This document shows positions 32,684-33,170 of a DNA stretch of 64,000 nt, in pieces (the stretch's first letter is position 1; every line of letters begins with the position of its first letter). The stretch covers positions 1-64,000 of the IMG/VR virus record IMGVR_UViG_3300012347_000193; one strand, 5' to 3'. The position numbers and the translations under genes are program-made. Origin of the DNA: a virus. The notes under the pieces are model-generated. The model was not told the origin of the DNA. It was given only the letters and a program-made list of their open reading frames with translations, and made no database searches.

Positions 32684-32745
32684 GATGAGCTTCGCTCATC
32701 TTCCTTCACTTATTTCTTCGCTATCGCTCAGAAATTACGTTCGGA
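32684..32745 (-). other. Pair of GNA-loop/tandem-GA hairpins (ssDNA-type structure, candidate origin element)
   Basis: Minus strand GATGAGC-GAA-GCTCATC and TCCGAACGTAATTTCTGAGCGATAGCGAAGAAATAAGTGAAGGA. Confidence 0.5.
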
Positions 32746-32809
32746 CATTCTTTAACATATTTGTTTAAGGAAATCTTATACTGAACTTCTATCATATCTA
32801 CGGAATACA

Positions 32810-33170
32810 TATTGCCGCTTTGAAGCCATGGTAGTGCTGTTCAAGCACTACCAATGGTAAAGGGATTTGCCATGCCCGTCATCCTTGCTATCTGTACCCG
32901 TTCAATCAGCTTCTTTGTGCTATTGAACGCCACCGGTTCCCCTGTAAAGTTTTTGGTCTGTAGTTGAACTTACGCACGTATGTTTTAATGCTTGGGTCCA
33001 GAAACGCATGTTCTATATCATCAAGATAGAGTAGATATAGACTCATTGAAGGTTCGCTTTTGTCGATTGCCTTCTCGGTGTTCCTTATCATTACTGATAA
33101 GCATACTCCAGAATCTGACGGCTTGTAACTTTCAAAGCAATCTCAAGGAGGACTGTCAACACAGCCTGCG
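32810..33170 (-). ncRNA. Candidate large structured non-coding RNA, unclassified
   Basis: Seven or more stems in the only long intergenic gap; G-U pairs favour the minus strand; boundaries approximate. Confidence 0.55.

Follow-up and report, generated by a model that had tools for sequence, protein, structure and literature searches.

The minus strand of the one long gene-free gap in a fragment of an uncultured jumbo phage genome carries a pair of hairpins, HP1 and HP2, which lie behind a large structured RNA and are retained, with compensatory changes, in about 190 related contigs. The element occurs in well over a hundred giant lake phages and on one strand only. We tentatively propose that HP1 and HP2 are a single-strand DNA signal of the minus strand that is coupled to transcription of the RNA gene, i.e., an R-loop or priming site. 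The evidence leaves it undecided whether the hairpins act as DNA or as RNA; the DNA signal is slightly ahead of an RNA tail because the hairpins follow DNA-type rules, are depleted of G·U pairs, bear non-GNRA loops and are devoid of terminator features, and because the spacer in front of them resembles an unwinding element. These uncultured freshwater jumbo phages form a large clade, to which phages of the PA5oct and SCTP-2 type are the nearest in culture; to our knowledge, no replication origin has been described in it, and we know of no double-stranded phage with an RNA gene coupled to DNA-type mini-hairpins. As a single-strand DNA signal, the pair would be a precise 60-nt candidate for the means by which the phages open their DNA and prime it; as the tail of the RNA, it would be an unusual, conserved module at the 3' end of a large and new phage RNA.

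The window, by which we mean the whole stretch of 64,000 nucleotides that was analysed, comes from a viral record of 110,650 bp, the completeness of which is estimated at 32%. Its source is a jumbo phage with T4-like core genes (Table 1), and the complete relatives of this phage are 350-525 kb in size (n=5). The hairpins are located in the one long gene-free gap (32398-33189, ~790 bp), which is flanked by the convergent 3' ends of the plus-strand hub operon and the minus-strand resolvase gene. The 58-aa ORF at the end of the hub operon has a tblastn match at nearly every related locus. At the DNA level there were 0 matches to cultured relatives among 50,697 phage records, and the resolvases (PDDEXK) of the nearest cultured phages, PA5oct and SCTP-2, are only 42-43% identical to that of the window. 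No such hairpins were found in PA5oct and SCTP-2 within the 8.5-kb stretch around the PDDEXK gene; the four ncRNAs of PA5oct map away from this stretch.

Table 1. Features of the hairpin locus and the neighbouring phage genes (positions in the window).
Feature	Position	Strand	Remarks
gp20-type portal	27084-28859	-	
gp26-type baseplate hub	31519-32397	+	
Conserved 58-aa ORF	32445-32621	+	last gene of the converging baseplate-hub operon; gp51-like according to the initial annotation
TATAATGA box (ATAAATGA in relatives)	32647-32654	-	26-28 nt 3' of HP2
HP2	32684-32700	-	GATGAGC-GAA-GCTCATC; 7 bp, GAA loop closed by C-G; holds exact GCGAAGC
HP1	32702-32745	-	nested hairpin, two tandem G·A pairs, each in Y-GA-R context
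HP1 inner module	32712-32735	-	6-bp stem, tandem G·A, 2-bp GC/GC stem, GATA cap
AT-rich spacer	32746-32810		A-rich on minus strand; length kept, sequence diverged
Structured RNA block	32811-33172	-	~360-370 nt; 70-77% identity in all relatives
A/T box	33171-33182	-	consensus ATATAAAAATT; just 5' of RNA block; near-invariant columns
PDDEXK / RusA-like resolvase	33190-33723	-	PF24608 2.3e-24, phrog_244; directly upstream of structured RNA
gp46/gp47-type nuclease	33757-36839	-	
gp55-type late sigma factor	36891-37790	-	

The minus-strand sequence and the two G·A hairpins written out in the initial annotation match the record exactly, and the structure drawn there was reproduced by folding. HP1 has the order TCC-GA-AC-(GTA)-ATTTCT-GA-GC-GATA-GC-GA-AGAAAT-(AA)-GT-GA-(A)-GGA and folds into a 3-bp outer stem, a tandem G·A, AC:GT, a small internal loop, a 6-bp stem, a second tandem G·A, GC:GC and a GATA cap; its inner module is GCGATAGC, a mini-hairpin of the type GCGNNAGC. 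The RNA fold of 32680-32750(-) calculated with ViennaRNA has an energy of -22 kcal/mol (z -3.9) and the form (((..((...((((((..((....))..))))))..))...))).(((((((...))))))), and with DNA parameters the two hairpin cores fold to -10.4 kcal/mol (z -3.3). The plus-strand complement of the region folds only to -16.7 kcal/mol. HP2 is unique in the 110,650-bp record when stems of at least 6 bp with a C-GNA-G loop are searched for. The bare word GA-xy-GNA-y'x'-GA is found there in 8 copies against 6.5 expected, and the copy in HP1 alone is flanked by a 6-bp stem, the flanking stems of the other copies being 0-2 bp long.

Relatives were collected by a resolvase-anchored protein search, which returned 188 viral contigs (80 of the 188 were fetched), by two pattern scans, which added more than 120 further loci, and by a metagenome scan. 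The HP1-HP2 unit passes a strict parse at 194 of 207 related loci, and the distance that separates the 3' end of the RNA block from the point where HP2 ends ranges over 88-128 nt (median 92), so that both the GA/GA motif and its spacing are conserved; from the start of the RNA block to HP2 there are 439-485 nt. The 13 loci that fail the parse include 8 with a variant form, 1 with a TATA loop, the sister of that locus, and 3 on incomplete contigs. BLAST alignments of distant relatives break exactly over the hairpin region because the spacer has diverged; the hairpins themselves persist. The unit is always accompanied by the RNA block, the resolvase gene and the 58-aa ORF, and it is present in one copy per genome in the five complete 350-525-kb relatives, one of which has an AATA-loop form invisible to the search pattern and another of which gives an extra match that resembles a tRNA arm.

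An alignment of 30 sequences has 96.9% of its cells paired, as compared with 79.4% in shuffled alignments, 0 of 500 of which reach the result of the real one. Ten of its 14 pairs vary on both sides, and slid controls pair at 29-45%. In HP2, which is known in 12 distinct variants, all 84 of 84 pairs are Watson-Crick and 4 of the 7 positions covary; what is fixed is the frame GA...C-loop-G...TC, with the closing C-G pair in 12/12 variants and a loop of GAA, GTA, GTAA or GATA (TATA in one lineage). The 30 distinct main stems of HP1 in relatives contain 186 Watson-Crick pairs, 10 G·T pairs, 0 A·C pairs and 13 other mismatches, and both tandem G·A pairs are kept in their Y-GA-R context in every version. 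The apical stem of HP1 has only 2 bp, AC/GT, GC/GC or GT/AC, and among 68 versions its cap is GAA in 57, GATA in 4 and AAA in 2, the others occurring once each. A palindrome recognized in double-stranded DNA by a dimeric protein was rejected as an explanation because the stem sequences covary rather than being conserved.

The minus strand must be the functional one, since 10 G·T pairs are found there against 0 A·C pairs and since the G·A pairs and GNA caps exist on this strand only. On the plus strand the tandem G·A pairs turn into UC/UC mismatches and the GNA caps into UUC loops, and HP1 of class B is reduced to a 6-bp stem. G·U makes up 0.5% of paired cells in HP1/HP2 as compared with 7.5% in the adjacent RNA (Fisher 2e-10, for cells that are not independent of each other). 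Eight of the 10 tetraloop variants of HP1/HP2 are non-GNRA, mostly GNYA (GATA, GGTA, GACA, AATA), and thus fit the DNA rule GCGNNAGC, not the RNA rule; the tetraloop of the adjacent RNA block varies as GNRA (GUAA, GCAA, GUGA). The loop rule of DNA mini-hairpins, a G...A loop with C-G closure, holds for all 12 HP2 closures and, as GAA, for 57 of 68 HP1 versions, the exceptions being AAA or AATA in a few cases and TATA in one lineage. The GC/GC apical stem (GCGAAGC, GCGATAGC) is found in the window and in class A, while most relatives have AC/GT (ACGAAGT). The initial annotation had pointed to an unusually stable single-stranded DNA mini-hairpin, and the ratio of G·T to A·C, the C-G closure and the low share of G·U all agree with strand-specific hairpins that obey DNA mini-hairpin rules. 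A hammerhead or kink-turn reading of the G·A pairs was set aside: the CUGANGA core and the 3-nt bulge are absent from the sequence.

The r(GCGAAAGC) hairpin melts at 39 C and its DNA form at 76.5 C, and natural mini-hairpin sites include the complementary-strand (primase) origins of G4, St-1 and alpha3, RSF1010 ssiA and the N4 early promoters (Hirao review, PMC13037366). The depletion of G·U, the non-GNRA loops and the higher stability of DNA over RNA indirectly suggest that the phage hairpins may form as DNA in vivo. They share with the G4, St-1, alpha3 and ssiA mini-hairpins the exact GCGAAGC in HP2 and GCGATAGC in HP1, the C-G closure, the G...A loop, the 2-bp apical stems and an implied function of one strand. 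Unlike those, they belong to a double-stranded jumbo phage and not to a single-stranded replicon; a large RNA gene precedes them, and the stems in which they are embedded are longer and contain two tandem G·A pairs.

The structured RNA that the initial annotation had put upstream on the strand of the hairpins was confirmed: RNAalifold finds 95 pairs in the block, 51 of them with compensatory changes, and the block has no codon periodicity; it is a real structured RNA of the minus strand. Neither tRNA, tmRNA nor any other known RNA family was found in the window; no Rfam model matched it at the gathering score, and at E <10 only noise was obtained for 32300-33300. The 3' end of the block is the invariant GGCTTCAAAGCGGCAAT. 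One hairpin of the block bears a GNRA tetraloop, and the block also contains an invariant, anti-Shine-Dalgarno-like CCUCCUUGAG (32811-33172, minus strand), which pairs with a downstream GGAG in the consensus fold. The AT-rich stretch between the RNA and the hairpins, likewise described in the initial annotation, is 76% AT as compared with 60% for the genome, and its length is constant. The A/T box at the other end of the block (33171-33182) could, from its letters, be a -10-like candidate promoter.

The ATAAATGA box behind HP2, with eight invariant bases in 79 distinct sequences, belongs to the hairpin module and remains by the hairpins where genes have been inserted between the box and the gp51-like ORF. 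In the genome the word ATAAATGA shows no enrichment. The box is similar to the late box GATAAATA, yet its position 8 is always G and not A, and it was rejected as an ordinary late promoter. It could also start a mini-ORF (M-N-x-Y-G) of 5-17 codons, whose codon periodicity is only weak, and in some relatives it is enclosed by the stem CCCGTAA/TTACGGG, as part of the loop. Between the 58-aa ORF and the box, some relatives contain an additional ORF of 185-203 aa, on the strand of the hub operon (L038 5044-5655(-), L054 5064-5621(-), also L072 and L080), with the hairpin module intact; this inserted ORF has no Pfam match.

The way in which a single-strand DNA signal might work at this site can be outlined as follows. 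The minus strand is the non-template strand of the RNA gene, and transcription of the ~370-nt RNA would run into the 76%-AT spacer, where the duplex would open, possibly as an R-loop. The displaced minus strand could then fold into the two DNA-type mini-hairpins with their C-GNA-G caps and sheared G·A pairs in the Y-GA-R context, and these hairpins, being far more stable as DNA than as RNA, would hinder re-annealing and give a fork-like junction of single strand and duplex. Priming or helicase loading could begin at a junction of this kind, which would thus act as a landing site and make the element origin-like or ssi-like; the formation of an R-loop, the priming and the proteins that may act here are all inferred. 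Speaking for a DNA signal are the strand specificity, the single copy, the fixed coupling to the RNA, the DNA-type rules and the absence of canonical terminator features, as well as a spacer that is AT-rich and constant in length with an unconserved sequence, as in an unwinding element. Speaking against it are an RNA far more conserved and complex than a primer requires, the short T-run after HP2 and A-run before HP1, which are weak terminator-like flanks, and the occurrence of similar GA-capped hairpins of bacteria at gene ends, in terminator-like places. It also counts against a DNA signal that the hairpins share a transcription unit with the RNA, with no terminator in between, and are therefore almost certainly made as RNA too.

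The fuller scenario, in which transcription opens the spacer, the DNA mini-hairpins lock the R-loop and helicase and primase enter at the fork-like point to make an RNA-gene-coupled origin, appears doubtful to us; if true, it would mean that a ColE1-like logic was reinvented in a T4-like giant phage. The plasmid-like origin envisaged in the initial annotation found no support in GC skew: there is no inflection at the hairpins either in the window, where the cumulative skew falls steadily through 32.7 kb to a minimum at 39-53 kb, or in the complete relative G003 (364 kb, circular map; L211-L229), which has its maximum at ~192 kb, its minimum at ~333 kb and the hairpins at 293.5 kb. The distance from the hairpins to the minimum, 7-20 kb in the window and ~40 kb in the complete relative, counts against the DNA signal. 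The test is a weak one for T4-like phages, in which there are several origins and replication depends on recombination. From 300 to 335 kb of G003 the skew is negative though all genes are on the plus strand; the skew of this genome is thus partly replication-like, since it does not simply follow gene orientation, and this signal misses the hairpins. The 127-bp "terminal repeat" found in G003 was discarded as a physical genome end, since it appears to be an overlap left by the assembly.

The T4 origins oriF(uvsY) and oriG(34) are R-loop origins that consist of a promoter and a downstream unwinding element. The phage studied here resembles T4 in its core genes (gp20, gp26, gp46/47, gp55) and in a transcript that enters an AT-rich element; unlike the site described here, the T4 origins have neither a structured RNA nor hairpins, and at the phage site the GC skew is silent. 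A search for the gp59 N-terminal domain, run without a working control, detected none, which is a further point against the DNA signal.

Nearly as likely as the DNA signal is the alternative that HP1 and HP2 are the 3' module of the noncoding RNA, where they would form and protect the 3' end as a weak terminator or an exonuclease barrier, or would bind a protein as RNA. They lie at a fixed distance on the strand of a proven structured RNA, their RNA fold is stable (-22 kcal/mol), G·T is tolerated in them and A·C is not, TCTTTA or TTTA directly follows HP2 in most relatives, and the 790-bp gap contains no other terminator candidate. A real U-tract is missing, however: the 8 bases after HP2 contain 3.4 T on average, most relatives have no T-run longer than 3, and AGTTAAG follows HP2 in the window. 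A scan for intrinsic terminators (GC-rich hairpin followed by at least 5 T in 8) lists HP1/HP2 on neither strand. Like intrinsic, bidirectional terminators, the pair separates convergent genes and is bordered by A-rich sequence on the 5' side and by a short T-run on the 3' side; unlike them, it has no U-tract of 5 or more and has conserved non-Watson-Crick pairs and strand asymmetry. The RNA-type terminators that the phage has elsewhere, e.g., upstream of 22379, look different, with a UUCG loop, a GC-rich stem and a U-run. The hairpin loops are GNA/GNYA, whereas the RNA block and the terminators of the phage use GNRA or UUCG, and G·U is strongly depleted in comparison with the adjacent RNA. 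Moreover, the spacer has diverged completely within the clade, and over such divergence ordinary terminators do not preserve details that are not Watson-Crick.

It is unlikely that the pair is a bidirectional terminator or insulator which works as RNA in both directions between the plus-strand late baseplate operon and the minus-strand RNA gene. The location between convergent units would suit such a device, as would the fully Watson-Crick HP2 in 12/12 variants, since folding of both transcripts needs it, and the A-run 5' of HP1 (5.3 of 8 bases as compared with 4.2 in the background), which is a U-run on the plus strand, together with the T-run 3' of HP2; GA-capped palindromes with A-run and T-run flanks are known from Sediminibacterium. 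The plus-strand fold, however, is destabilized (-16.7 vs -22 kcal/mol, with only the 6-bp stem left of class B HP1), the 10:0 ratio of G·T to A·C implies selection on one strand only in HP1, and the terminator scan misses the site in both directions.

GA-capped hairpins of this pattern, in which two Watson-Crick pairs alternate with tandem G·A under a GNA cap, are not restricted to the phages. When 596 Gb of prokaryotic genomes were scanned for the skeleton common to HP1 and ColE1, CGAACG..GAGCG.AGCGA..AGTGA, at least 120 loci (L230-L349) were obtained, more than 70 of them unrelated to ColE1; the unrelated loci, which are chromosomal, are from Actinomycetota, Betaproteobacteria, Bacteroidota and haloarchaea. 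The hairpins of Acidimicrobiia and other Actinomycetota stand ~10 nt past the stop codons of diverse genes, and in the actinobacterial family the GA strand is antisense to the preceding gene in 17/17 cases. The hairpin is a multi-copy repeat in Rubrivivax; Sediminibacterium has long terminator-like palindromes with GA caps and A-run and T-run flanks, and on two GC-rich contigs (L309, L349), one of them haloarchaeal, there are palindromes that mirror tRNA 3' ends. They are like HP1 in the alternation of pairs and in the cap, and unlike it in that they are often multi-copy or at gene ends and are without a link to an RNA gene. None of the bacterial and archaeal hairpins has an Rfam match. The pattern is thus widespread in prokaryotic intergenic DNA, belongs to no described family and points to a general structural device, which weakens any argument from resemblance to ColE1.

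A ColE1-type origin, with an RNA II-like pre-primer and a PriA-type primosome site homologous or convergent to n'-pas/ssiA, was the central suggestion of the initial annotation and now seems very improbable. The ColE1 sequence to which it referred does exist and has the same nested skeleton as HP1: on the RNA II-sense strand of NC_001371, ~90 nt past the presumed origin region, stands TCGAACGACCGAGCGTAGCGAGTCAGTGA, with GCGAGGAAGCGGAA behind it. We take the ttttgctcacatg region of ColE1 to be the origin, and presumably the TCGAACGACCGAGCGTAGCGAGTCAGTGA segment is the mapped n'-pas. The skeleton itself is unspecific, and its match is no evidence for a ColE1-type origin because more than 70 unrelated bacterial and archaeal loci carry it; the ColE1 segment, with z about 0, is not predicted to be unusually stable. 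ColE1 and the phage site share the order of a structured RNA, an easily opened stretch and a GA-capped hairpin on the RNA-sense strand, and in ColE1 it is on the displaced strand that n'-pas/ssiA becomes exposed (PMC3640518). They differ in that the phage site shows no homology to ColE1 beyond the widespread skeleton and in that the phage RNA is far more conserved than a primer requires. The sequence of the phage locus revealed neither an RNA I-like antisense or Rop-like feature nor a G-run/C-run anchor. The AAGCGG hexamer, to which the initial annotation had also drawn attention, is present (32820-32815, minus strand) as part of the invariant 3' end of the RNA; its position differs from that in ColE1, being 70 nt upstream of HP1 in the phage and 6 nt downstream of the hairpin in ColE1.

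The inner stem of the ColE1-family hairpin covaries between plasmid lineages (GAC:GTC vs CAG:CTG), a point in favour of the ColE1-type reading. In these hairpins GAGCGYAGCGA and the GAGGAAGCGGAA that follows it are fixed (L210 1322-1361; L236, L272, L283, L304, L343). An origin segment of the pUC/pBR322 type is present on short contigs from assemblies of unrelated species, among them Lacinutrix, Runella, Moritella, Nocardia and Streptomyces (e.g., L244, L246, L256, L262, L307), which is most simply explained as cloning-vector contamination. A literature search with the words of the hairpins returned only vector sequences.

A DNA hairpin promoter of the N4 type for a virion RNA polymerase, whose form (stem of 5-7 bp, C-G closing pair, GAA/GGA loop of 3 nt; PMC13037366) HP2 does have, is close to refuted and was dropped because no single-subunit RNA polymerase was found: PF00940 had no match in three complete relatives (in a search without a working positive control), the giant ORF of the window belongs to phrog_10938, a structural protein, and the cultured relative PA5oct depends on the host polymerase (PMC7318152). 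This ORF (49123-63999, plus strand; phrog_10938, 7e-251) exceeds 4,959 aa and is still open at the end of the stretch; judged by its profile match, it is a virion structural protein and not a polymerase.

Contigs often end inside the RNA block. Among the 54 full metagenome contigs, 26 begin 0-475 nt upstream of the hairpin motif, with start positions that are spread and cluster at 321-393 nt, and 8 full metagenome contigs end less than 500 nt downstream of the motif (L350-L429, L082-L200). A physical genome end and transcript-derived contigs were both rejected, the contig ends being spread within the block. Because the ends are scattered, the pile-up looks like assembly breaks at a conserved element, i.e., at a sequence common to co-occurring strains.
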